A stretch of 64,000 nucleotides of DNA. It comes from Microthyrium microscopicum. Lineage: Eukaryota. Position 1 is the stretch's first letter, and each line of letters begins with the position of its first letter. The notes under the pieces are model-generated. The model did not search any database. It was not told the origin of the DNA and was given only the letters and a program-made list of their open reading frames with translations. Of the stretch, positions 4,363 through 64,000 are shown piece after piece. The position numbers and the translations under genes are program-made. The stretch is taken from the NCBI GenBank assembly GCA_010405405.1, contig MU004241.1:372001-436000 (forward strand), written 5' to 3'.

Positions 4363-7300
4363 ATGGACAAGATGTCGCATTCGAACCTATTACTTTTGTT
4401 TGGTGATCAAAACTTTGACATTGCGACAAGTCTATTGGATCTTCTCTCGTCTCACAGCAAATCGAGATCTCTGAAACTCTTCATCAATGGACTCCATGAT
4501 ATCTTGCGCCAAGAGGTTCCTAAACTTTCTTCCAAAGAGCAGTCATGGCTTCTGGATTATACTTGTCTAAAAACTTTAGCCAGCCAGTTCAGCAAAGACG
4601 TTGAACGATATGCTGCATTACAAATGTTTCTGACTTGTGTCACTCAGCTCGGTCATTACATCATGTAAGAAACGACTCCAATTTTATGGCTTTCACTAAT
4701 GAGAGGCAGCTTAGTTGAAGATGACCCCGAGCTGCTAGACTCGAAATCGAGCTTCGAAATTGTAGCGATATGTACTGGAGCTCTGTCCGCTGCAGCAGCA
4801 TCGTTGGCAAAGTCTGTTCAAGAGCTGCTTGATGTGTCTATTGCAATATCAGCCATAGCGCTTCGTCTTGGTGTGGCTATGCAACGAAGAGCAGAAAATT
4901 TGGAAGCGACTCCGGGCTCCTGGGCATTTACAGCTTCCAATATCAATGAAGACGAGCTGATGAATTTACTGGCAATTTACAACAACGTAACTACATCTTC
5001 AACTTCTAGATACATTGGACTGACCAAATCAACAGGACTTGCCTCCCCATAGAACCCTTTTTCTAAGTTCGCGAGCTCGACAAACGTTTACGATCAGTGG
5101 ACCACCATCATCAGTACAGCCATTCCGCCAGAAGCTTACCCACCAAGGTATAAAGACACTTGAGCTGCCGATTTCAGCCCCTTATCATGCCTCTCACCTC
5201 ACAGGGCCCAATGTGGAGAACATATTGGAGCCTCTAGCAACTTTCGAAAACTGTAGTTCTCATAGTGACTTGATCTCGGCTGGATCTGAATCTTGGTACG
5301 CACGGGAGACTGCTCATAATCTCATGACAGGTATCATAGACGAGATATTATACAAAGAACTCAATTGGTCGAATCTGCTGACAAGTTTGGTCAGCAAAGT
5401 GTCCGGCGCCAGTGTCACTTTGAAAGTAATTGGGGCGACGAACTGTTCGAGCTACGTGCTCAAAGAGCTGACTGCAAACGGTATTGATGTCGCTTCGCTT
5501 CCAGCTTCACAGATCAAGTCGTCATTGTCAAATAACGAACCCAATGCCGGGGATATTGCGATTGTTGGAATGGCAGGAAGGTTCCCGGGGGCAGAAACTC
5601 TCCAGAGCTTCTGGAAGGTGCTAGTAGATGGGAAAGATCTTCATCGACAAGTGAGTATCCTGAAACAAAAATTTAGTCTATTACTAAAGAATATAGATTC
5701 CGAAAGACAGATTCGACGTCAAAACGCATTTTGATCCTGCGGGAAACTTGCAGAACTGTTCGTAATTGTTCACTCCTATGATAGTTATACAATTCTCTGA
5801 CTACAATACGCAGCAACGCTCACTCCATATGGTGTCTTTATTGATGAACCCGGTCTCTTTGATGTTCGTATGTTCAATATGTCGCCAAGGGAGGCAGCGC
5901 AGACAGACCCCATGCAACGCATGCTTCTGCTGACAACATATGAGGCACTTGAGATGTCCGGGTATAGCTTGGGCAGAACTCCTTCAACATCTAGTGCAAG
6001 AATTGGCTCATTCTTTGGGCAAACCAGTGATGACTGGCGAGAAGTCAATTCGTCTCAAAACGTGGACACTTTTTTCATAACTGGAGGGATTCGCGCCTTC
6101 GGTCCAGGAAGACTGAATTATCACTTCAATTGGGACGGGCCCTCATACAGTATTGACACGGCGTGCTCCTCCAGTGCCGCTTCAATACAACTGGCGTGCA
6201 GTGCACTGCTAGCTCGCGAAATTGATACAGCTGTCGCGGGTGGTGCCAACATCCTCACGGCTTCAGATTTATTTGCCGGGCTAAGTCGAGGCGGATTCTT
6301 ATCCAAAACTGGAGGATGCAAAACATTTGATGATGCCGCCGATGGATACTGTCGCGGTGATGCAGTTGGAACCATTGTCTTGAAACGCCTAGACGATGCA
6401 ATCGCCGATAACGACAACGTTCTTGCCGTAATCAAGGCGATTGCCACTAATCACTCCTCACAGGCAGTTTCAATTACACATCCCGATAGCAAGACACAGC
6501 AAAAACTATTTCACACTGTTTTGCAGAAAAGTGATCTTACGCCTGGAGATATTGACGTGGTAGAGCTTCATGGCACTGGCACTCAAGCCGGTGACTATAC
6601 CGAATTTTCATCAGTTATGGGAGTTTTTGGAAGTCGTCCTTCCAATCAACCGATCTACGTCGGCAGCGTGAAGCCAAATCTTGGACATGGAGAGGCAGTG
6701 AGTTCAAGGATATGCCCGAAGACTCACTGGATACTAACATTTACGAGGCCTCTGGAGTCACCTCCCTAATGAAATCCATATTGATGCTCCGTCACAATAT
6801 AATCCCTCCCCATGTCGGAATCAAAGGCCGAATGAACCGCCGTTTGCCACCACTAGAGACTACACCTGTGAGGCTGGCCATGGAACCGACTGCATGGCCA
6901 CGGAACGCAATCAACAAAAGACGCATATTGATCAATAACTTTGATGCCGCTGTAAGATTTTCATTCCTCACTATTTCATTGTCCCTCCGGAATCTAAAAT
7001 CGATTTAGGGTGGAAATACTAGCATTGTTATTGAGGATCCACCTACAAGGACTATTGAGGTCTCTGATCCAAGAAGCCATCATGTTGTTGCAATATCGGG
7101 CCGTACCCTCGTGTCTTTTGAGCAGAATCGCGCTCGCTTGCTTCAATTTATGAGGACCAGCAATGTCAGTCTGGCAAGTCTTGCATACACTACCACTGCA
7201 CGTCGCCAACATCACGTCTTTAAACGTGCCTATTCTTGTAGCTCTATACAAAACTTGATTTCACTCCTAGAGGCAGACGAAGTAGCCAAAAATCCCCCAA

Positions 7301-10300
7301 GTCGTATCAGCAAGCCACCCAAGGCCAGCTTCGTTTTCACTGGCCAAGGAAGTCATTATACTGGAATGGGTAAACAACTCTACAACACAAACTGTCTGTG
7401 TAAGCAATGGTTCTTGGAGTACAATTCAATGTGTGTTCAACAAGGCTTTTTACCATTTCTGGAACTCATCACTGGAGATTTACATGCCGAAAATGCGACA
7501 CCATCGCAAACCCAGCTAGCCATAGTTTCATTCGAGCTGGTTATGCTTAAACTGTGGGATAGCTGGGGAGTGAAGCCGGATGTAGTGATTGGTCACAGCC
7601 TTGGAGAATATGCAGCACTTGTAGCAAGTGGTGTGCTGTCTGTTTGTGATATGCTCTACCTTGTGGGTAAGCGAGCTCAGTTGATGGAAAATAACTGTAC
7701 TCCGGGCACGCATACCATGCTAGCTGTCAAGATGGCAGCTAGTGATATCACCAGCACGTTGCATGAATCTGGACTCGATTCGTGCGAGGTGACTTGCATC
7801 AATGGACCTCAGTCTACCGTTGTCAGCGGCCAGAAACAAGAAATTATAACGCTGCAGAATAACTTCTCAAGTCGAGGCGTGAAGACAATGCCGTTGAATG
7901 TGCCTTACGCGTTTCATTCTGAGCAGATGGATACGGTCCTGGATGAATACCGAGAGGTCGCAGGCTCAGTGCACTATTCGACTCCCATTGTTCCCATCGC
8001 TTCGCCTCTTATGGGTACAATCGTCAAAGATGATGGGACTGTCAATGCTAAGTAAGTCATCAGGTCGCTTTGATTGTATCTTGTTTGATCTATCTTCTAA
8101 CCACGTCACAGTTATCTGGTGAGTCAGTGTCGTAAGCCGGTCGATTACGTTAGAGCACTTAAAAAGCTACAATCTGATCCAATTACATCTGGCCCAAATG
8201 TGTGGATCGAATTGGGACCCAAATCAATCTGTCTTGGCATGATTAAGTCGACATTAAATTGTCCGACTTGCGACCTCATTGCTACTGTCGACCAAAGCGA
8301 CTCAGAGTGGGCAACAATTTCAAGCGCTCTGGCTCGACTTTACAGTGCTGGATTCAATATCAATTGGAATGCGGTTCACAAAGAATACGAAGCCGGCTTG
8401 AGACTACTAGAGCTACCTTCATACTCATTCGACTTGAAAAACTACTGGATACAGTATGAAGGAGACTGGAGCATTAGCAAAGGACGAACCAAGACAATCG
8501 TCCAATCAGAGCCTGAGACAAATTTTACAACAAGCATGCATCGAGTGGAATCAGAGATCATTGAAAGCACTGCAATGACGGTCATATTCTTAACCAATTT
8601 TGCGGAACCTAATCTCAGGCTTGCCGTCGAAGGCCACCAAGTCAATAAGGTTGGCCTCTGTCCAAGTTCGTTATATGCCGATATGGCCATGACAGCAGCA
8701 TCCCACGTTCATGCAAAGATATTCCCTAGAAAAGAAGTCCCTGGACTGGATGTAGCGGACATGGAGGTCACGAAACCTTTTGTGGCGGATTTAGATGCTC
8801 CAGAACAAATTATGAAGGTCACTGCTCATAAAGAGTCTAACTCAGATGTTGTACACGTATCTTACACATCGTTGCACGACGGAGAGTCTATCGACCACGC
8901 TCACTGTATAGTCAGGTATGGTGATAGCAAAGAATGGATGTCACAGTGGTCAAGGCAAAAATACCTTATCCAGGATAGGATCATGAGGCTGAAGGATGGA
9001 GACGAAGACTTGATCCACCAGCTTCATCGACGAATGGTGTACAAGCTGTTCTCGGCTCTCGTCACATACAGTGACAGATACCGCGGAATTTCCAAGGCTT
9101 ACCTGAACAGTGCGATGTTTGAGGCAGCCGCTTCAGTCAGATTTCAAACATCAGGGTCCGAAGACAAGTATTTTTGTAGTCCCTACTGGATTGACAGCTT
9201 GCTTCATCTATCAGGGTTTGTTCTCAACGGCAGTGATAGTACCGCTGACGATGCCGTATATATTTCTCATGGTTGGCAAAGCTTACGGTTACCAACAAAG
9301 CTCGACGAGGACAAGACATATACAACTTACGTGCGGATGCAGCCAGTCGGAAGTGATACTGTCATGGCTGGTGATGTCTACATCTTCGATGGTGATACCA
9401 TCATTGGTTTATGTTGTGGTCTGAAATTCCACAAGATCAAGAAATCCATCATGGCCCATCTTTTACCAGGAAACAGCCCTGCAACCACTACCAGGAATAT
9501 AAAATCTACCAAGCCAACGGAATCAACAGTTGTGACAGCCCAAAAGCCAATCGTTGTGGAGACTGGTTCCTTCGATTTGGTTTTGGCAATGATTGCAGCA
9601 GAGGCTGAAATCTCTACCACCGATCTTGACGACAACGTGGAATTTGTCGAAGTTGGTATAGACTCATTGCTCAGCTTAACGATTACGGCGAAATTGCGAG
9701 AAATGACTGACAAAGAGATTCCCGGCTCTCTCTTTGTTACACATCCCACCGTTGGAGATCTACGAGGCTTTTTGGGAGACAGTCTTCAATCCTCGTCATC
9801 CGATGATTCTGGGGGCTCCGAGTCTTCCTTCGATCAAGGGCCAATGAGCACCGGACAAACGTCTACCTCAGATCTGGTGTTTGTTGAAGGCAACTCCCAG
9901 CTATCACCTACACTTTTCAGGACAGTTATAGCCAACGAATTAGGAGTATCAGAGTCCAGCATTCAGCCTGATACTGAATTTGTTGAACTGGGACTTGACT
10001 CACTCATGAGCCTAGTAATTCTAAGCAAGCTGAAGAACATCACTGGAAGTGCAATTGATCCAGAATTGTTCGTACACAACTCAACTTTTGGAGATCTCTC
10101 CAACCTTTATAGCAAAAGTGAACCTGCCATCGGTCTAGGCATCAAAACTCCCGAGCTCTTCACGCCAAGTAGCGCCGTGCTTGTATCACCAATGACCGAA
10201 TCTCTGAGCTGCAGCTCTGTCTTCCTTCAAGGACACTCGACAGCTAGGAACGTGATGTTCTTACTTCCCGATGGGTCTGGCTCAGCAGCCTCATATTGTG

Positions 10301-11069
10301 GAATCCCACCGGTTTCAGGCAACCTGGTCATTTACGGTCTCAACAGTCCATACTTGAAGCACTCGAATGGATTCAATCAGTCTATTGAGAGCATAGCGTC
10401 ATGCTATGTATCCGAGATCCGTGCCCAAAGACCGCAAGGACCATATATACTAGGAGGATGGTCCGTCGGAGGGGTCTATGCATATGAAGTTGCCCGACAG
10501 CTTGTGCTGGGAGGCGAAACTATTGCTGGTTTACTGCTGCTCGACGCGCCTTGCTCGAAGCGGCTGCCCCCAATGTCGCTAGAAACCATTGACCTACTAA
10601 CACAGCATGGCATATTCAGCAATGAAAAGACCATATCACCTATGGTAAGCCAGTTCACTTACAGATAGGCAAGATCTAACATGTAAGCAGGTCCGACAGC
10701 ATTTTCTGAGCACTATTCGTGCACTGCATGATTACGTCCCGAAAAGTATGCCGAAGACTGGATTGAATATCCCGTGCGTGGCACTATGGGCTCGAGAAGG
10801 TGTATTTGAGCATAGTCCTGACATGCAGGAGAAAGTTTCCTCGGACGGTATCAACGACTGGCTTCTCTTTTCTCGTCATGGCCCCGACTCGACTGGCTGG
10901 GATGAGCTATTGCCGAACTACAAAGCTATTGTTGTGGACGGCAATCATTTTACCATGATGCGAGAGCCAAAAGTAGGCTTATTCGTCCGTCTGCTGTTCT
11001 GCGTTAACGCTGATATAGGTTCGAAATCTTGGTGCTTTGGTACAAGATGCCATGCGCTCTTTTGTATGA
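4363..11069 (+). CDS. Non-reducing iterative type I polyketide synthase, SAT-KS-AT-PT-ACP-ACP-TE, 10 exons
   Basis: Introns 4665-4709, 4987-5035, 5651-5696, 5758-5813, 6698-6747, 6952-7008, 8052-8111, 10645-10690 and 10973-11018 join into one frame. [67 protein letters not shown] and DSLLHLSGF; two ACPs GIDSLL and GLDSLM; TE PDGSGS, GGWSVGG, GNHF. No KR/DH/ER/MT motif seen. Confidence 0.95.
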
Positions 11070-50339: not shown

Positions 50340-53300
50340 ATGGAAAATACACCAAAGACTCCTGGTATATCCGCTTCCTTACATCCTTCACATCAAAACT
50401 AACTTGACATCAAGGCAAAACGCCTCCTCGAATCATCTCCGACCTTAAGCTCTACGACCTCGCAGCACCAGATTCTCGTAATCCCTTTACCCAACCACCT
50501 TATAGCTACGATCACGACACTTTCATAGTCCCCAAAACACCGGACGTGAAACGCTGTAACCACCGGTTCTCTGTCAAACACAATCGTACACATCTTGACG
50601 ATCCTGAAAATGGCTATCCAACACGACCGATTCGAAAAACTGCTGGCATATGCCAAGAATGCAGATGCCACGTCGAAATTACTCTCCTGACGAACGGACC
50701 AATCCCAGAGAGATGTCCCACCGATATAGCTCCTTTGCATCACTTCGTTCTCGCGGGCCCCATGCGAGAACAGGGCCGTCAACGTATTTTCACCTTCGTC
50801 TGCACCACTTGCAGAGCCTCTCTTGAGCTTATTTATCGACCTCCACGGCTCGACGAGCCATACTTTGATCTTCTGACTGACCCCGAGAATCTCCGAAATA
50901 GATATGAGGAGGCTCTTCGCCAGGATCCTGAGCGCAGATCTATCGTTATGCAATCAGGCATCAAAGTGCTTGATGCTCTTTCATCTTACCTTAACGAAAG
51001 TCTCAACCCAACTCGAGAAGACCGCATTATTCCAGAAGAGAACAAGAGATTTATGACATCTTTTGGTAAAGACTGCGAGTCTTTCCTCGTTTGGCTTGGA
51101 TTTCGCAAAGTCTACATACCCAACCCCGATGGTAAGTTTCGAACAACGCACCTGGTGGCTCCCATCGCATCACATGGCTCCCATCTCATCTCGTCGAGTT
51201 TTTGAGTTGATCGAGAAATCCCTTCACTTTTCCGAATAATCTCGATTTCACGAGTTATGCCATCGCAATCGATGGCTGCCACAGTATATTATGGGTCCCA
51301 TCGAGGGCAATGGGACTTGACCACGAAATGCGTCGGGGGATGAAGAGCTTATTTTGCAACATTTTCTGACCAGATTGCAGGTTCACCTTCAGAAAATAAG
51401 GGTTGGCAACTGCCAAACACTCCTAGCAAGGACATTTTCACCGACGGACCTGGCGTTCTCTTGGAAGATGTGCAGGAAGAGATTACTGTTAGGATGCGAA
51501 AGTATTCCGAAGCCGAACGTCGGATGCTTAGAAATCCACTAGATCCACCACATTTACTCGATTTGAGAGTTCAAAATGTCCTGGATTCCGAAGTTTATAC
51601 AAAGGCGCCTACAACTCTACGCAGCTTCAAGTTTGACTCGGAACTGGACGAGTATTTTGCTGGACTAGGAGCTACACAAGACTTCTCAGACAAACTCCTC
51701 AAATTCTGCTTTAATAAGCAGATTGAGGCGGATCCGGACCACTCGTCATACTATTTTGACTGCCTGAAGGGAATTTCAGAAAAACGAGGAACTGATGATC
51801 TCAACATAATAGTTGGAACATTAGCGTCTGAAGGCTATGTATCGCAGCAAGATGTAGTTAAGGCCTATCGCTATCTGGGATTCCAACAGTCTGAGATTCC
51901 AAGTCTTGTCGATGATCAGATCCTGGGTTCCTTCAACTCTAGACTTGAGAGCTCGCCTCGGCATCAGGAATCCGAGCTGAGAGACAAGCTTCGAATGATT
52001 GGGGTATCTCGCGGAAGCCCCAGTCTCACAAGCGCTGCAGAAAATGGTAAGTCGAGTTCGGCTTCCAGCCCAAAAGCCTTTTCTTTTTCAAATTCTCCAC
52101 AAGCATTGGAACCGTTTGAACTTGACGAAAAGATTATCCCGACATTGTGGTCGGATTATGAAGGTTGTTCAAATTGTTTGCCCTGCTTTTTTATCTTCAT
52201 TTGATTGCTATCAGAGTTTAAATCGCATTCTGATAGTGTAATCTTCTCCTTCATTCCGCAATTTCTCCACTAACATGGTCAACGTAGATTTCAAAACACC
52301 ACAACAGGCTCTGAAGTGGCTAGATCCTACGTTCGATGGCTCCGTCCAGATTAGCGATGATTCCATCATTGCTCTTGCTGCAAGTAAACAATCCGACCGA
52401 CCCGAACAAACAGACCTCTGTCGCAAGGCTGTTGAGATATTAGCACAAGACAGAGACAGTGAATTTCTTCGTATCTGGGCAAGAGAGGGATCATACCCTG
52501 AAAATTCCAAGGAAGAACAGATCGCTGCCGCGTACCGATTCTTCAACATCAACGACCGAACTAGTACCGTGGATTTGGACGTCTTGCAATTCTATACCTA
52601 CGAGTCAGAGGATCCAGCAAGAAACGAGGAAGCCATGCGTCACTACGCTGTACTTTCAAACCACATTCTCAAACCAAATGCAGGGAAAGGTGAATCCTGG
52701 GATACTCCGGTTGGCTTGGAAAACATGGGCAACACTTGCTACCTCAACTGCCTACTCCAATTTCTCTACGCTATTCGCCCTCTTCGAGAGCTCATAACGG
52801 ATTTCGACGAGTACAAGTTGGACACTTCGGACCCTTCCTATGTTCCAAAGAAATTGGACACACAAGTGGTATCGAAGAACATGACCATTCTCTCGCAAAC
52901 TTTTGTGAAGGAACTCCGTTTGTTATTCCAAGAAATGGCTTCGGATCCAAGATCATCAGTGCGCCCAACTTGGGATTTGGCAAAACTCGCCTTAAAAGGT
53001 GATCCCGTATCAGGTCCTGTACGCCGATCAACAATTGGTGGAGAGCTACCACATTTGAGATCTCCGACTCATCGAAAAGCTCCGTCGTTTCCGGAAAATT
53101 ACATTGACTCGGCTTCCCGACCTGCTCCTTATTCAAGAACGGCCAATTCCAGCGAGATTACCTTGATTGATGAGGTTACGAAAACACCAGATGAAGACGA
53201 AAATACCATGCTTCTAGACAAAGCGGAACAGTCTGAGCCAATGTCTGATAGTCCCGTCGAGATACATCTCGATCCCATGGATCCCGAGGTAAGATATCCC

Positions 53301-54781
53301 GTGAAACCACAATTCTTGACAACATCCAATATCATCAAACGACGTGTTGGTAACTATCGCATTTCATGGCTCCCATAGATTTTGTTTCTGAAGAATTGCG
53401 ATGTCGCCCACTGAATGCGATGGCTTCCATATTCCTGACGTGGTTGCTTCGATTTTGATGTGATACTAACAAATTTCAGGCCATGCCTCTTCTTGAACCG
53501 CAGGAAGAAGAAGAAACTCGACCACCAATGAAAGAGCCATCACCTCCACCCAGGCCACCACCAGTTCCTCCGCGTCCAATCATTGGGCCAATGAATAAAA
53601 ACGATGCTGGAAAAACCTCCATTTGGAATAATGACGAATCGACACGTAGAGAGGCAGAACAGGCCGCCCAGCAACAAGATGTCAGCGAGGCCATGGATGA
53701 GGTTTTATTAAAGCTTCAATGCGCCATCAAAGACACTGTTCCGACCAGTGACGGAGGAATGACCGACAAAGTCAACGAACTGTTCTACGGAAAATGCGTC
53801 TGGAAGTTCCTGGATAGCAAGACTGAAGACAACACAGAAATATTCGCCAGCATCAATGTGTCCTTGATATCAAAGCCAAAAACCATCTCTGCTGGTCTTG
53901 ACCAGTCCTTTGGCATTGATGAGCTGGAAAGCGAGGGAAAAAAGGTTCGTCGATATCGAACAATCACCAAACCACCTCCAATCTTCCAAATCCATCTACA
54001 CCGCCAGGACTATGATCACAACCGTGGCGATTCAGTTGTACTAAAGCACCACATACAACTTGAAGAGGTCATCTATCTGGATCGCTTCATTACTTCCAGC
54101 AATCCAGAGCTTCACAAAGTCCGCGAAAACTCGTGGGAGCTTGACGCCCGCCTGGCCAAAATGCATGCCCGGCGCAATCAGCTCCTGGCCACCACGATCG
54201 ACATGGAAAAGCCGGAGCTCTTGGATGCCACCTGGTCCTTTGTGTCGTCCCAAGGTGACGTTCTCAACACTGATGATCCCACCCTCGTCGATGATCTCCG
54301 TGCCGAAGCCGAGCACGTGCGTCTCAAGGCGAGGGCTGTATCAGCCCGCCTAGACGGGCTCGAGACAAGGCGAGCGGCCTTGTTTACACCCTACACTCGC
54401 CATGCATATCGTCTAGCCGCCGTGTTTGTGCATCGTGGTCAGGGTGGTGCCATGGGCGGCCATTACTGGATCTACATCTACGATTTCAAAGTCGACAAAT
54501 GGCGTCGCTACGAGGACCGTGAAGTGCGCGAAGTGACAGATCCGCAAGAAGAAATCTTCAAGGAGAAGGATCCTGAATTGCAGGGCGCGCCATATTTCGT
54601 CGTATATGTTCGCGATGAGGTGAAGGACGAAGTGGTCGATGCCTTGTGTCGGATCAAGCCTGTGGAGGAAGAAGTGGATGCTGATACTCAGATGGGCGGG
54701 ATGAGCGAAGATGGTGGTAACGTTAACGGCTTATCGCTGCTCAAATCATCAGAGGCGGAAGAGGGTGCGATGAAGGCGTAG
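50340..54781 (+). CDS. ubp2: Ubiquitin carboxyl-terminal hydrolase (USP/C19), Ubp2-like, 5 exons
   Basis: Introns 50365-50414, 51132-51380, 52047-52287 and 53289-53479 keep one frame. Cys box GLENMGNTCYLNCLLQ, QQQDVSE, His box YRLAAVFVHRG...GGHYWIYIYD; RPT-like AY..LG repeats typical of Ubp2. Confidence 0.9.
51146..51333 (+). ncRNA. Candidate intronic hairpin RNA (ubp2 intron 2)
   Basis: Nested pairings ACGCA/TGCGT, GTGG/CCAC, TCCCAT/ATGGGA, ATGG-CT-CCCAT/ATGGG-TC-CCAT; inner ATCGAGA/TCTCGAT and GCCATCG-CAAT-CGATGGC. Confidence 0.4.
52101..52243 (+). ncRNA. Candidate intronic hairpin RNA(s) (ubp2 intron 3)
   Basis: Hairpin 52101-52188 (AAGCA/TGCTT, TTTGAAC/GTTCAAA, ATCC-C-GAC/GTC-GGAT) and hairpin 52203-52243 (GCTATCAGA/TCTGATAGT). 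Confidence 0.35.
53330..53465 (+). ncRNA. Candidate intronic hairpin RNA (ubp2 intron 4)
   Basis: CATCAAA/TTTGATG basal stem ending next to the TACTAAC branch site; CTATCGCATT/AATGCGATGG stem; shares 19/21 nt with intron 2. Confidence 0.4.
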
Positions 54782-56888: not shown

Positions 56889-59093
56889 ATGGCCGCTCTC
56901 CCATTTCGCGACATCAATGTCCACGCTTCAACCTCTCACTATGCCTTCTCATCCCCGTCAACACCCTCAGCTCAGACTCTGGTCGTCGAACGGCCATCTG
57001 GGGATCTTCGATTGACCAATGACAAGATCCTGGGAAGCAGACGAGTATCTGCTGTTGCCGGTATTTTTGGGATGATCAGCCTAAGACTTGGTATAAGAAA
57101 CTATCTTGGCACATGAGCTCTACTTACAAGTCCAGACAAATACATCATTGTCATAAACAAAGCAAACCCCGTCGGTCGCATAAAAGGCAATATGATCTAC
57201 AAAGTTGTCACCACCGAGTTCCTACCTTTGCGCGAACGCGCCCTCCATGATGCTGATGAGGATCGCTACATCTCCCTCCTGAAAGACCTCATCAAGTCGA
57301 GTCCTCTCTATTTTTCCTATGGCTTCGACATCACCAGCTGTTTCCAAAGGCAATCGCAATCAGACTTGTCTAACCCACTTTGGCAAAGAGCTGACGAACG
57401 TTTCTTTTGGAATCGATTCATTCAGTCAGATTTTATCGATTTGAGAAATGGCAAAGGTGGTCGACTGGCACAAGGACGTGAACAACCGGGCGTCGACTCC
57501 TTTATACTGCCCGTTATGTTTGGAATGTTGGAAATTAGAAACACTTCCATCAAAGGCACGCCATTGACATATATCCTCATAACTCGAAGATCCCGGTTCC
57601 GGTCCGGAACTAGATACTTTTCGAGGGGTCTAGACGATGAAGGACATGTATCCAACTTCAATGAAACAGAGCAAGCAGTAATTCTCAATGACGAGGCTTC
57701 AAAAGGACCTGTCAGTTATGCAGGCGACCAGGGCATGCAGTACGAAAAGTTGAAAGCCGCAGTGGGGCAAGAAGCCCAAATTCTCTCGTATGTCCAAACA
57801 AGAGGTAGTGTGCCTGTTTTCTGGGCCGAAGTCAACAACCTTCACTATACGCCCAAAGTCCAAATCCGTGGTGTTGATAGTGCTGTCACAGCTGCAGGAC
57901 TACATTTCCAGGAACAGATTGACCTTTATGGCGACAACTATTTAGTCAACCTCGTCAACCAAAAAGGCAGAGAGCAAAGAGTCAAGGAGTCTTACGAACA
58001 AGTTGTTGAGAAGTTGGTGTCTAGCCCAACTCAGCAAAGGAGTCCCAATGACAACACATCTGAGAAATTCAACGTCATAGAATCCAAAAGCGGCGGCAGT
58101 CAATTTGATCGATTGCACTATGTCTACTTTGACTTTCATAATGAGACGAAAGGTCTTCAATGGCATCGAGCCAAACTTCTGCTTCAAAAGCTAGAGCAGC
58201 CAATCATACATGGAGGATATTTCAGAGCTGTAGACATGCCTGGTGGAGCGAGTGGACTTGAAGTCCGAAGCAAGCAAAATGCTGTGGTACGAACAAACTG
58301 CATGGATTGTCTCGACAGGACCAATGTCGTGCAAAGCATGCTTGGTAGATTTGTCCTTTCCCGAATGTTGATCGACTTGGGTGTTCTTCAAGAAGGTGGA
58401 ATGGTTGAGGACGACCAATCTTTCGAGCATCTATTCCGGAATATATGGGCAGACAATGCGGATGTTGTTAGCAAAGCATACTCTGGTACAGGAGCGCTAA
58501 AGACAGACTTTACGAGAACTGGTGAGAGGACCAAAAAGGGTGCTTTCCAAGATTTCACAAACTCTACAACACGATACGTCAAGAACAACTTCCTCGACGG
58601 CCCTCGACAGGACGCATTTGATGTCTTCCATGGTGTTTACAAGCCAGGAAACAATCATTTGGGCAAAAGTTCCATCTTCGCCGACACCAGGCCCCTCGCA
58701 ATCCAGAGCGTGCCATACGTTCTTGCGGCATGCATCTTCCTGGTGTTCATAGGTTCATTCACGAGACGAGAAGCAACTTCTGCAGTGTGGCCTTTGAGAC
58801 TGATGATGATCATTTCTCTTGTTGCTGCGACAATATGTCTGCATTTCATGGTCAAACATGGCATGCTCTACGTAGGTTCCCGAAACAAACACCCGCTGAG
58901 ATATAGAATTAACATGATATAGGTCAACTGGCCAAAACTCAATACTCCACCATGGGCTATCGAAGGATTTCAAGATGCTTTGACACAAGCTAAAAAGAAT
59001 CCCGTGATGGCAAGTTTGGTCAAAGGCCACGAACGAGGACGAAGTGAAGCACGCGTTGGTTACATGGAAGAGGGCAAAACGAGAATCGAATAA
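56889..59093 (+). CDS. sac1: Phosphoinositide phosphatase Sac1, 3 exons
   Basis: Introns 57091-57135 and 58872-58922. RFFWN, GTRYFSRG, NFNETEQ, QTRGSVP, catalytic RTNCMDCLDRTN, two C-terminal TM segments and tail EEGKTRIE. Confidence 0.95.
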
Positions 59094-59491
59094 GACTTCT
59101 GTTCACACAGAGACTTGCTGTACAACTACATAGATGGGATGGTTACATTGCACACTATAGGCAGACATACCAGGTAATACTTCGTATAATAGATAAACAT
59201 TCTCGTATAGCATTGAAAAGACAGCTATTGACACCACCCAAAGTCCGATACAGCAACATCATTATATCAGCCTTGCATATGCTCGTTCAGCCTCGTGCAT
59301 TGGCACCCGAGACAATGCCACGAAGTCAACAGATCATACATCACTAGCGGGGCACAAACCTCCTGAATGACCTTCTGAACATTTAACGCAATTGCCCCTC
59401 CATACAATTCCCCACAGGCTGCTTTTAATCTCCTAGTTACCTCTTCAGTATTTAAACCTCCGCGCCATCCCCTGAAGCTAAGAGCATTCAA

Positions 59492-62320
59492 ATGGCAACC
59501 GCCCTCGAAGCCGCAAAGAAAGCCGCCAACGCAGCTCAAATCGGCGTCAAACATCCAGACCGCTTTCCTACCTGGCCAGACATAAAACATTTCTTCAAAT
59601 CTTCTTCGACCGACAAGATGCTTGCGAGAGTTCTTTGCCATCCGCTGTTGGGACAGCCGACGCTTAGTCCGCCTGGGGAGGTATCGGTTACGTTCCATGT
59701 GGTGTTGGAGGTTGATCAGGGGTCGGACAAGAGCTGGGAGGTACAACTTTGGCACGACCATGGAAATGATTGGGCGGGAGAGGATTTTGAGATGGCTGAG
59801 GAAAGTGATGTTGTAAGTTGTGTTGTCAATTGATTGGATGAAGCTGATGGGATGTAGTTGAGTATTGGAGATATTAGCAAGAAGCTTAGCAGCATGCCTA
59901 AGAAGTTGTGTTTCTCGCTGAAGCTTGATCGACCAACGGAAGCTGGGAAGACGGAGACGAAGTTTACGGTTCGCTTCAGGAATTCACCCAAGGCGGAGTG
60001 GAAATGGGCCAATGATCAGTTGGCTGTTTCTGATGGTAGTGTCTACTGGCAGCCAGTGACGGTACCAAAACACGACATCGGGTATTATCTTACCAAGCAG
60101 GATCCTGCTATCGAAGCTGAACAGATGGCTGCCCAAACGCCGGATACCCTCCTCTGGTCTCTTACTGCACCTGTCGACGCGGCGCAAGGCGATGTCTCGA
60201 CGATTTCTCAGTACAGATTTGGACTGGCTACCAACTTCACTCGATGGTTCGCTACGACGAGGTTGATGACTACTTGGTTTCGACCCAGACATGGAAAGCA
60301 CAAGTTCTTTACTGATAACCAGGATGCTGTCTGCATTGCCTTTCTTCGCAATGACGGGCTCAGTGTTGTTGTGCTTGGCCTCAGCGGAATCGATGATACT
60401 GGTGCTCTGTTCACATACGATGCTGATGGATACGTTGTGCTCAAAGCTCGAAATGATGGTACCCAAGCAGCTCATGCCAAGGTTCTGGTCTCAGTCGCTC
60501 CAACTTTCGAGCTTGCGAATGCAGCGGTCATGTATGAAGCTCGCAGCCTGTCACGCGCAGCTCAGACTGATGTCATGGCTTTGGAGCAACAGATTCAGGG
60601 CATGAATCTCAAGGACGTTGATGCTCAGTGGCTGGAGGAGTGGTATGACGGATTTGGGTTCTGCACTTGGAATGCTCTGGGTCAGAATTTGACAGAGCAA
60701 AAGATTCTTGATACACTGGATGAGTTCAAGAAGGACAAGATTGACATCACCACTCTGATCATTGACGACAATTGGCAGTCTTTGGACAATGAGGGTCAAG
60801 ATCAAGGTCGGAAGGGCATGACTCGATTCGAGGCAGACGCAACAGCATTTCCCAGCGGCATGAAAGGTCTAATCACCAAGATCAAAACCCAACATCCACA
60901 CATCAAGAGAGTAGCCGTATGGCACACCATGCTAGGATACTGGGGAGCCATCTCTCCAACAGGCGAATTAGCAAAAACCTACAAAACCATCAAAGCACTA
61001 AACAACAGCGGCTGGGAATGGACTTGTATCGCCCCGGAAGACATCGACCGCTTCTACAACGATTTCTACAAGTAAGCTCCTTTCCCCCATCCAGGTTCAC
61101 GACCTACTAACGAATCCCCCAGATTTCTCCAGTCCTGCAACGTAGACGGCGTAAAAACCGACTCCCAAAACTCCCTCGACGACCTCCAACACGCCCCCGA
61201 CCGCCGCACAATGCAAAAGTCCTACCAAGACGCCTGGATCCTCGCCGGCCTACGCTACCTCGGAGCCCGGCAAATCGGCTGCGGATCCCAAGTACCCGCC
61301 ATAGTATTCCACTCGATGATCAACACATCCACACCACGCATCGTCGTCCGCAACAGCGATGATTTCTTTCCCGACAACGATGGGAGTCATCCGTGGCATA
61401 TCTTTGCGAATGCGCACAATGCGTTGATGATGCAGCATTTGCATATTTTGCCGGATTGGGATATGTTTCAGACGGATCATAAGTGGGCTGCCTACCATGC
61501 TGCGGCAAGATGTGTGAGTGGGGGGCCAATTTATATTACTGATGCGCCGGGGAAACATGATAAGGATCTGATTGGTCAGATGACGGCGCAGACGACGAGG
61601 GGAACGACGGTGATTTTGAGGACGGAGAGGTTGGGGAAGGCTAGTCAGGCGTATATTGCGTACGAAGAGCCGAAGTTGTTGAAGATTGATACGTATAATG
61701 GTATGGCGCGCACAGGGACTGGCGTTTTGGGTGTGTTCAATGTGAGTCAGGCGGCGTTGAGTGAACTTGTTGGGTTGGTGGACTTTCCGGGCTCGGAGGA
61801 GGGTGAGTATGTGGTGCGGTCTCATACGCTTGAGCGGACCAGTTTGCCGATGCGGAGAGGTGAGAAGCATGCTTTTGTGCATGCTGAATTGGATGTGGGC
61901 GGGTATGATATACTCACGGCGTATCCGCTCAAAGACTTGAGTGCAAGTTGTGGAAAGATACAGGTTGCGAACTTGGGCTTGGTAGGCAAGATGAGTGGAG
62001 CCGCGGCCATCATCTCCAGTTCGCTATACTTTGAGGACGAGAGGGCGAAGGTTCCCTCCGAGTTGGCGAAGAGGGCAAGAGTATGGACGAGCTTGAAGGC
62101 ACTGGGGACTTGGGGAGTGTGGATTGATAGGTTGCCAGAGTTATCGGTGGAGGATGACTTGATGGCGATGATGTTGGGCAAGCCGATTCCGTTGCATTTG
62201 GCAAAGATCTCAGAGACGGATGAGCGTGTGTTGGAGATTGATTTGGCAAAGGCCTGGAAGGATGGCGACTATGAGAGCAGCTGGTCAAATGAGGTTGCTG
62301 TTGAGTTATTTATACGATAG
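59492..62320 (+). CDS. Glycoside hydrolase family 36 (raffinose synthase/Sip1-like alpha-galactosidase), 3 exons
   Basis: Introns 59813-59857 and 61072-61122. Motifs GFCTWNAL, LIIDDNWQ, AVWH...GYWG, VDGVKTD, RNSDDFFP, PDWDMFQT and HAAARCVSGGPIYITD. Confidence 0.92.
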
Positions 62321-62831
62321 ATCGGTTGGTTCTGGAGCTTGGAGTTTTCACTTATCTAGAATAGTGGTAGTAACAACGGTATAACTTGTCACATGGCTTA
62401 GGATCCAGTTCACCAATTTTACACAAGTTTTTATTACTAGGGGTGTATAATTCCTCAAGTTCGATGGGTTTTTGAGCATCAAACTCGTCTTTGTAGGCGA
62501 TGAACAAACTTGAGAGCTCAACTAAATGTCTTCCATAAGTCATAGTATGGTTAATGACTCCTGTTTGCTACAGGACTAATTTGCCCCGTGGCAAATCACT
62601 GAAGTCCTCTTCAACATCCCAATACCAATCATCATCAGATCAGTCTGTCACTGGACGGTAGTCTTCTTCACCTTCAGCAATGTCCAAGAATCGCGGGCTC
62701 TGAAGGAGTTCCGTGATTCTTGCATTGATCAAAAGGTATGCCATCTTAGCTTTCTGAGAGAGCTCTCCTGACTTGCTTTCGTCCATCTCTTCCCAGTGAG
62801 CTTTGTTATAGTCTGCCTGTGCGGAGCGATC

Positions 62832-63920
62832 TCAGTGGTAATGAATTCCCAAAAGCTGAAAAGCCAGGCCTGAACCACGCTTGTTTCGTGGACGCAGGAA
62901 TTTCACGCCGTACTTGTATTCATTCAAATGGTGAAATCGATGCTGGATAGGGAATATATTGCCCTCTAGCCCCTTCTCGTCGAATATTTGCCGCGCCTCG
63001 TCCTGGATGTAGGCCAAAGCGTGCCACATTGCGGTTTCCATAACTTTAGGTTTTGTTACATAGCTTTCCCGGGTTGAATGTTTGAGGATTGTGCCAATGT
63101 TATCCTTCGCCGACCATAGCAGTGCAATGGCAAAATCTTTCAGATGGTTTTTATCACCTAGAGACCATGCAGCCGCAAATAGCCATGCGAATGTATCAAA
63201 GTCATTGGTCACCCAATATGGATCTTCCATTGCTCTCAAAGGCAGTGAGAGCATCCCAGCATTCGGAGCTGAATCGGGAAGTGCAAGACCGTAAAATAAC
63301 TGCGTATGGAGGTCGTTGCTGTATAGATTCAGCCACTGGACGATATCATCGAACAACAATTGCAGCTGTCCGGAACGTTGGAGACTTGGAAGCGCTATGT
63401 AGTAGTCCGCTAGCTCGACGACTTCGAAAAGTAGCTGCCCGGTAATTCGGAAATGTTGGCACTTTAGGTCGACATAGCCATGCAGTATTTGCATGAACAG
63501 AATTAGCGCGTCGAAGGGAACATCTAGACAGCTGATAACCGGCATAGTAGTGAGTAGTGGAACGGGAAGTGCTGGGTCTACTTCTGCTGCCGAAACAACT
63601 TGGGCTGGTTTCCATCTTTTGGCCACTCCGCCGTCTAGATAGCGACGGAAGTATTCAGAGGTGCGCTTCAGAACTTTCGAATCCACTAAAAGCATTGGGG
63701 GAATCTGAATTGGCCCCTGTGTCTCTGGTTTCTCTGATGTTTGTGTTACCCCTGATGTGTCTGTTGTTTCTGATAAATGTGATATGGCCGATGTGTCTGA
63801 CGTATCTGACTCCCATATGAAGAGACCTTCCAGCAGGCAATCCATATTGAGTAGGAGGATCACATCTCCACCAGTGTCCCGGGGTATCGTGTAGGCTTGG
63901 CTAACACGAATTTCCGACAT
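62832..63920 (-). CDS. BTB/POZ-domain protein (362 aa to the first stop; frame may extend to 62352)
   Basis: ATG 63920. LLVDSKVLKRTSEYF, DVPFDALILFMQILHG and LLFEVVELADYY match the fungal BTB pattern. Confidence 0.7.
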   Translation of the reverse strand: MSEIRVSQAYTIPRDTGGDVILLLNMDCLLEGLFIWESDTSDTSAISHLSETTDTSGVTQTSEKPETQGPIQIPPMLLVDSKVLKRTSEYFRRYLDGGVAKRWKPAQVVSAAEVDPALPVPLLTTMPVISCLDVPFDALILFMQILHGYVDLKCQHFRITGQLLFEVVELADYYIALPSLQRSGQLQLLFDDIVQWLNLYSNDLHTQLFYGLALPDSAPNAGMLSLPLRAMEDPYWVTNDFDTFAWLFAAAWSLGDKNHLKDFAIALLWSAKDNIGTILKHSTRESYVTKPKVMETAMWHALAYIQDEARQIFDEKGLEGNIFPIQHRFHHLNEYKYGVKFLRPRNKRGSGLAFQLLGIHYH

Positions 63921-64000
63921 TTTGGAAGAACTAGATGCGAGGCAAGTGTGACGAGAATGAGGGGTTTGAGTAGCAAGATTTGTCAAGTTTTGCTGCCTTC

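Follow-up and report, generated by a model that had tools for sequence, protein, structure and literature searches.

We analysed a 64,000-nucleotide (nt) window of the genome of Microthyrium microscopicum, a fungus of leaf litter (GenBank assembly GCA_010405405.1, contig MU004241.1, positions 372,001 to 436,000 of the forward strand; all coordinates below count from the first letter of this window). Near its end, on the minus strand, lies the gene BT63DRAFT_459580, whose reading frame continues past a first TGA (TGA1) through a second TGA (TGA2) and a TAG to a final TAA. With a rough probability of 0.55, we favour the reading that this is an orphan, lineage-restricted BTB-like gene that has been C-terminally eroded or pseudogenised. 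The ancestral frame would have extended well beyond today's stop. It would have reached the TAG at 62570 or farther, perhaps about 62465 or the TAA at 62352, and its tail would have been cut by ordinary nonsense codons in the sequenced strain. TGA2 and TAG would then be genuine stops in former coding sequence, and TGA1 would be either a third nonsense codon or part of a weak 63-nt intron in the public gene model. The present product, if any, would have about 351-405 residues and lack the old tail; alternatively, the gene as a whole may be a young pseudogene. Recoding, editing and readthrough are unnecessary for this reading.

Coding signal across the stops

Starting from the ATG at 63920, the frame runs for 362 codons to TGA1 (62834-62832), for 63 codons to TGA2 (62642-62640), for 23 codons to TAG (62570-62568) and for 71 codons to TAA (62354-62352), with no frameshift throughout. 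A first-pass annotation, made from the DNA letters alone, had described this frame through three internal stops, and its coordinates, its quoted peptides and the absence of a frameshift were all correct. It had also pointed out that each internal stop is one A-to-G change away from Trp. This is literally true, but it holds for every TGA and TAG by definition, so for the present stops it means only that none of the three is TAA. The relevant pieces of the gene are as follows.

62835..63920, minus strand: 362-codon open frame from ATG 63920 to TGA1, with a codon log-odds of 0.111, typical of coding sequence; codons 1-348 (63920-62876) are exon 1 of BT63DRAFT_459580
62813..62875, minus strand: predicted intron of the public model, GTTCAG...CTGAG...CACAG/GCAG, holding TGA1; GT..AG, 63 nt, in frame; its 21 codons have an uninformative codon score of 0.031
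62643..62812, minus strand: exon 2 of the public model, DYNKAHWEEM...EGEEDYRPVTD, which in the claimed frame looks clearly like coding sequence
62640..62642, minus strand: TGA2, where the public model ends; it lies in an uninterrupted coding-like stretch that is acidic and rich in Trp, EGEEDYRPVTD*SDDDWYWDVEEDF
62571..62639, minus strand: the 23 codons from TGA2 to TAG, SDDDWYWDVEEDFSDLPRGKLVL, which most probably were once coding
62355..62567, minus strand: 71 open codons after TAG, up to TAA; G+C content (GC) 37.6%, with a patchy coding signal

Codon usage was trained on the 17 open frames of at least 250 codons in the window (7135 codons), and the gene-rich part of the window, without a block of 17-20% GC, served as background and null. 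Coding windows had a mean log-odds of 0.119 per codon and non-coding windows one of -0.012. The 63 codons after TGA1 scored 0.186, which none of 5890 non-coding windows matched. The 23 codons after TGA2 scored 0.173 and the 71 codons after TAG 0.076, values matched by 1.3% and 4% of non-coding windows, respectively; taken jointly, the final 95 codons scored 0.100, which 0.2% of non-coding windows matched. A second measure, independent of composition, compared frame 0 with the other two: frame 0 led by 0.152 in the 63 codons, by 0.316 in the 23 codons (reached by a fraction of 0.000 of non-coding windows) and by 0.030 in the 71 codons.

The same signal was followed along the gene with a 15-codon sliding profile. 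Frame 0 was best in every window from 62705 to 62585, without a break at TGA2, and again at 62525-62480. The profile dipped at 62975-62870 (TGA1 and the model intron), 62735-62720 and 62570-62540, and no signal was found past about 62465. Coding statistics of the same frame flank TGA2 on both sides, and flank TGA1 as well if it is unspliced; for TAG the flanking signal is weaker, its downstream side being ambiguous.

The openness of the frame was also compared with that of other sequence in the window. Of 1662 windows of 159 codons, taken from blocks of the gene-rich part that resemble non-coding DNA, 0.36% had at most two stops. Of 4020 non-coding windows of 95 codons, 1.9% had at most one stop, and of 5410 non-coding windows of 71 codons, 0.48% were open throughout. 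Among the 23 open frames of at least 200 codons in the window, the present one meets two stops in its next 159 codons and 18 others meet 4-11. The other four, with 0-3 stops, all cross short in-frame gaps into open frames of 286-855 codons. From piece to piece along the tail, GC falls from 0.49 through 0.45 to 0.376 and the codon score from 0.186 through 0.173 to 0.076, the pattern expected from a stepwise truncation that proceeds from the 3' end. The tail is coding now or was so formerly, at least as far as TAG, and its final 71 codons are uncertain.

Public gene model and splicing

The public product of the gene, annotated as "hypothetical protein BT63DRAFT_459580" (405 residues; KAF2664963.1; P0001 below), is identical to the translation of join(63920..62876, 62812..62640). 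In this model TGA1 is spliced out by the in-frame 63-nt intron 62875-62813, and the protein stops at TGA2. The one RNA run listed, X1, consists of spliced RNA contigs, from which five GT..AG introns of 45-51 nt are verified for neighbouring genes, all with GTA donors; its contigs leave 62408-64000 uncovered, so it is silent on the expression, splicing and editing of the present gene. The general fungal splice consensus is GTRNGT for the donor, CTRAY for the branch site and YAG for the acceptor. The model intron has the branch-like motif CTGAG and a weak donor, GTTCAG, whereas the verified neighbouring introns begin with GTA in five of five cases. If an earlier AG at 62817, 4 nt upstream of the model acceptor, were used, the intron would be 59 nt long, the frame would shift and the product would have 351 residues. 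We regard the reality of the 62875-62813 intron as doubtful, at somewhat less than even odds. Gene predictors often mask fungal nonsense pseudogenes behind such in-frame "rescue" introns.

The public model might nevertheless be right, with nothing lost: the 63-nt intron would be real, the gene would always have ended at TGA2, and the next 95 codons would be 3' untranslated region (UTR) that is open by chance. The spliced translation matches exactly, and its 405 residues compare well with the 407 of a paralogue described below. The RNA-verified intron 61072-61122 of a neighbouring gene is 51 nt long, in frame and contains a stop, and thus stop-bearing short introns are normal in this genome. 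Furthermore, the last 71 codons are ambiguous, with their GC of 37.6%, and one stop or fewer in 95 codons, at 1.9% of 4020 non-coding windows, would not be rare if many genes were scanned. Against this explanation stands the coding signal itself, which crosses TGA2 undiminished in frame 0, rises to an excess of 0.316 in the following 23 codons (0.000 of non-coding windows) and gives the 95 codons a joint score that only 0.2% of non-coding windows match. The donor GTTCAG, unlike those of all five verified introns, and the earlier AG, which would shift the frame, also count against it. We consider this explanation unlikely.

Further introns could remove TGA2 and TAG as well, so that normal splicing would yield a product of about 451-473 residues that uses the last open stretch. 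We searched for GT..AG candidates of about 39-160 nt around these two stops, with A or G as the third base of the donor. In-frame candidates across both stops do exist: 62671-62561 (111 nt, 464 residues), 62671-62558 (114 nt, 463 residues), 62651-62568 (84 nt, 473 residues), 62671-62522 (150 nt, 451 residues) and 62651-62517 (135 nt, 456 residues). The return of a coding-like signal at 62525-62480 is also in line with a downstream exon. However, every one of these introns would delete the coding-like 23-codon piece, and at 84-150 nt they are long compared with the 45-51 nt of the five verified local introns. The candidates of 84-114 nt have no branch-like motif in range; those of 150 and 135 nt have one, the 135-nt candidate ending in GAG. 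Such additional splicing appears improbable.

Relatives of the protein and the source of the stops

A phmmer search with the 522-residue read-through protein against 1.84 billion representatives found two proteins, the gene's own product P0001 and a paralogue, P0002; residues 363-522 had no match in this search. P0002 has 407 residues and is encoded on another scaffold of M. microscopicum, and its 32% identity is confined to query residues 68-272. A comparison of the tail with P0002 revealed nothing significant, the further best E-values being 0.68 and 5. A BLASTP alignment of the surroundings of TGA1 to the core of the paralogue, which placed the stop opposite a Trp, was rejected as not significant (E = 5). 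A profile built from P0001 and P0002 retrieved the same two proteins only, a word-index protein search retrieved only the gene's own product, and a Joint Genome Institute (JGI) metagenome scan gave 21 pattern matches with no relative among them. No orthologue was found in any of the collections searched (word index, phmmer, profile and metagenome). The first-pass annotation had proposed checking whether orthologues carry Trp or conserved stops at the three positions; homologues were sought accordingly, but only the paralogue was found, and it could not be aligned past residue 272. Since no relative matches the tail, nothing detectable constrains it.

The name "BTB gene", given in the earlier reading of the DNA, is not confirmed by Pfam, which gave no family at E-values up to 1 for three pieces of the protein and none at E-values up to 10 for P0001 and P0002, BTB (PF00651) included, and a search of PDB sequences gave no match at E-values up to 10. 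The name does appear in UniRef, where P0001 is called "BTB domain-containing", and among language-model and structure look-alikes. In the ESM Atlas, the nearest clusters are from ascomycetes and carry the automatic name "BTB domain-containing protein"; the feature score is 0.97, and 205 of 256 features are in common. Its structural neighbours have 347-551 residues and template-modelling (TM) scores of 0.33-0.51, the best being 0.48-0.51, with family scores "under the bar". An AlphaFold2 model of the 522-residue read-through from a single sequence had a mean predicted local distance difference test (pLDDT) value of 36.3 and a predicted TM (pTM) score of 0.30, and was unusable for judging the folding of the tail. 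In cluster names, TM scores of 0.48-0.51 and UniRef name, the protein resembles the fast-evolving BTB-domain-like proteins of Ascomycota in the ESM Atlas clusters; it differs from them in having no Pfam BTB domain and no PDB match, and its sole relative detectable with HMMER is the one paralogue. "BTB-like" is therefore used here as a lead and not as an established membership.

The acidic, Trp-rich stretch that flanks TGA2 spans 62585-62675 on the minus strand. It may resemble short Trp-acidic or Atg8-interaction-type linear motifs.

As for the source of the stops, the first-pass annotation had suggested G-to-A/C-to-T changes, the kind left by repeat-induced point mutation (RIP). We calculated the RIP-type indices TpA/ApT and (CpA+TpG)/(ApC+GpT), for which general thresholds are in use. 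They were 0.67 and 1.36 for the gene, 0.79 and 1.25 for the tail, and 0.72 and 1.28 for ordinary genes. Because the gene and its tail match ordinary genes in these indices, RIP is not the source of the stops, and this part of the suggestion was dropped; the paralogue, moreover, is only 32% identical.

Ordinary neutral decay was evaluated with a rough estimate. About 6-7% of random substitutions in the tail create a stop, and three stops imply about 44-52 substitutions in 480 nt. Along that stretch, the tail would stay free of frameshifts with a probability of 0.03-0.40, according to the ratio of indels to substitutions that is assumed; neutral decay is not rejected by these values, nor is it comfortable with them.

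The stops might instead be assembly or consensus errors, or mutations of the culture-collection strain. The collections searched contain one assembly of one strain only, which leaves room for such an origin. Nevertheless, the RNA contigs and the assembly have no differences over the neighbouring 6 kb, two small records showing three other letters, and it is improbable that a single gene would collect three separate substitution errors in 270 bases. We consider this origin extremely unlikely.

The suggestion of a young pseudogene, which the first-pass annotation had offered as an alternative to editing, fits these results: the stops lie amid a coding signature on both sides, the tail has no detectable conservation, and neutral decay is not rejected. 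Known young or unitary pseudogenes that arose by nonsense mutation, and truncated orphan genes of fungi, share with the present gene the in-frame stops and the codon bias and frame kept on both sides of them. They also share the lack of a frameshift so far, the lineage restriction, and an intron of ab initio appearance with a weak donor that skips one stop. In contrast to these cases, no intact orthologue or allele that would prove the former sense codons was found here, and the N-terminal 362 codons are intact. A gene with these 362 codons may still work as a shorter protein.

Several points weigh against an eroded tail. Three nonsense codons without a frameshift are somewhat unlikely under neutral decay, with a probability down to 0.03 at a high indel rate. 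The frame-0 excess of the 71-codon piece, 0.030, is equalled by 21% of non-coding windows and is ambiguous, and these final codons may never have been coding. The codon model is built on just 17 open frames (7135 codons) of the window, and the answer for the 71-codon piece changed with the background: with the block of 17-20% GC included in background and null the piece scored as non-coding, and with the block removed it did not. Because the 23-codon piece is acidic, its score may be too high. The RNA contigs of X1 support neither the introns nor the transcript end of BT63DRAFT_459580. Finally, no orthologue or second strain in the collections searched has a sense codon in place of one of the three stops; because no sense codon was seen there, we infer the origin of the stops by mutation of sense codons, and with it the order of events.

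With the eroded tail as the favoured reading, KAF2664963.1 probably hides a premature stop behind a doubtful in-frame intron and terminates within formerly coding sequence. As it stands, the finding is an annotation-quality note and an example of the loss of a C terminus in orphan fungal genes. It is an ordinary finding.

Editing, readthrough and the neighbouring genes

The first-pass annotation had put forward a "triple-locked" gene that depends on editing or readthrough. In this case the stops would be corrected in the mRNA, by stage-specific adenosine-to-inosine (A-to-I) editing to UGG, or passed by the ribosome, to give a product of about 500-522 residues. The annotation had left the class of the host to be checked, and M. 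microscopicum belongs to the Microthyriales in the Dothideomycetes, outside the Sordariomycetes. In passages of PMC10776026 and PMC11156358, the lineages with demonstrated sexual-stage mRNA editing are the Sordariomycetes and, in the Pezizomycetes, Pyronema, and neither Aspergillus nidulans nor Botrytis cinerea was found to have editing. The review PMC11156358 does not contain the word "Dothideomycetes".

The correction of premature stops described in those passages concerns UAG, and "UGA" is absent from PMC10776026. Editing sites have U at position -1 in more than 70% of cases and prefer hairpin loops (PMC11156358, section 5). In the set of 71 Fusarium pseudogenes, a passage of PMC10776026 gives six as having two such sites, with no mention of a gene that has more. 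A UAA codon that is edited to UGA still ends translation (PMC13123824).

One of the three present stops is UAG, with U at -1, G at +1 and A at +3; the other two are UGA with G at -1. Neither A of TGA1 nor that of TGA2 lies in a hairpin loop closed by at least six pairs, and the local folds have z-scores of -0.09 and -0.10. The first-pass annotation had itself called two UGA sites atypical for known fungal editing. The surroundings of the TAG are predicted to be folded.

62559..62598, minus strand: two adjacent predicted hairpins; the 61-nt fold has -19.7 kcal/mol and z = -3.42, and one of 200 shuffles was as good

The upstream hairpin (62598-62577) has a 9-bp stem, UGAUUUGCC/GGCAAAUUA. The second (62575-62559) has a 6-bp stem and the 5-nt loop AGCAA, whose first base is the A of TAG (62569), with U at -1. 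A comparable loop context was found for 79 of 965 TAG triplets in the gene-rich part (8.2%), and the placement of the TAG alone is not significant. The paired hairpins could be a 3' UTR element of the gene, or chance.

Readthrough is known from leaky contexts such as UGA-CUA(G) and UAG-CAR-YYA. With the codons that follow them, the present stops read UGA-GAU, UGA-UCU and UAG-CAA-ACA, unlike these contexts. An altered genetic code or a suppressor tRNA was also considered and rejected: a neighbouring gene supported by RNA ends at TAG, which is a real stop there, so the code is standard, and the window holds no tRNA gene.

Restorative A-to-I editing in Fusarium graminearum and Neurospora crassa, as presented in PMC10776026 and PMC11156358, likewise acts on apparent pseudogenes whose stops become Trp through A-to-G changes, and the present TAG shares with its sites the U at -1 and the predicted hairpin loop. 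The present gene differs in belonging to a class without reported editing, in its two UGA stops with G at -1, in having three sites and in the lack of conserved orthologues among those searched for.

For recoding, the sole positive hints are an unbroken frame that is largely coding-like over 159 codons, with no frameshift, and the U-A-G in the hairpin loop (62570-62568). The U at -1, G at +1 and A at +3 of this TAG, and its A opening the 5-nt loop, correspond to the preferences described for Fusarium (PMC11156358, section 5), but a loop context like this arises by chance in 8.2% of TAG triplets. The Dothideomycete host (a class without reported editing in those sources), the two UGA stops outside loops of at least six pairs where the described correction is of UAG only, three sites compared with no more than two mentioned for Fusarium pseudogenes, the unfavourable readthrough contexts, the absence of a suppressor tRNA gene and a public model that simply splices out TGA1 all argue against it. 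Recoding of any kind is very improbable. It is extremely unlikely that a Dothideomycete restores this triply interrupted, lineage-specific BTB-like gene, two UGAs included, in the RNA or in translation. If this were true, stop-correcting recoding would extend to a new fungal class and a new sequence context. If it took the form of stage-specific A-to-G changes at the three stops, it would be the first stop-correcting editing at UGA and the first in a class other than Sordariomycetes and Pezizomycetes, a prospect with little support.

The gene is converged upon by a neighbour on the plus strand, whose transcript reaches into the read-through frame.

62321..62377, plus strand: 57-nt 3' UTR of the convergent raffinose-synthase-like gene, after its stop TAG at 62318-62320; the RNA contig ends at 62377 with a loose adapter end

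The RNA contig of this gene extends 26 bases into the end of the read-through frame. The gene itself (59858-62377, plus strand) is raffinose synthase/Sip1-like (PF05691), is supported by RNA, has introns at 59813-59857 and 61072-61122 and ends at TAG. Upstream of it, a phosphoinositide-phosphatase-like gene with SacI homology (PF02383) lies at 56904-59236 on the plus strand; it is also supported by RNA, has two introns (45 and 51 nt) and ends at TAA. At 51344-54781 (plus strand), several open frames encode RPT repeats as well as domains of the ubiquitin C-terminal hydrolase (UCH) type and probably form one multi-exon deubiquitinase gene.

Introns were also deduced from the gaps between open frames, but this filter was too crude, with only 8052-8111 (GTAAGT..CTAAC..ACAG) clean, and none of them was used as evidence. 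Successive open frames at 5024-10668 (plus strand) contain a ketosynthase, an acyltransferase, a PS-DH domain, two phosphopantetheine-binding stretches and a thioesterase. They represent a polyketide synthase gene of the non-reducing type, with short introns between its parts, which adjoins an AT-rich block. This block, about 20 kb of 17-20% GC within 12000-34000, is interrupted near 22-24 kb (32% GC). At 14-21 kb its RIP-type indices are extreme, with a TpA/ApT of 1.6 and a (CpA+TpG)/(ApC+GpT) of 0.06, and it has the appearance of a repeat island degraded by RIP, with gene-rich sequence on either side.

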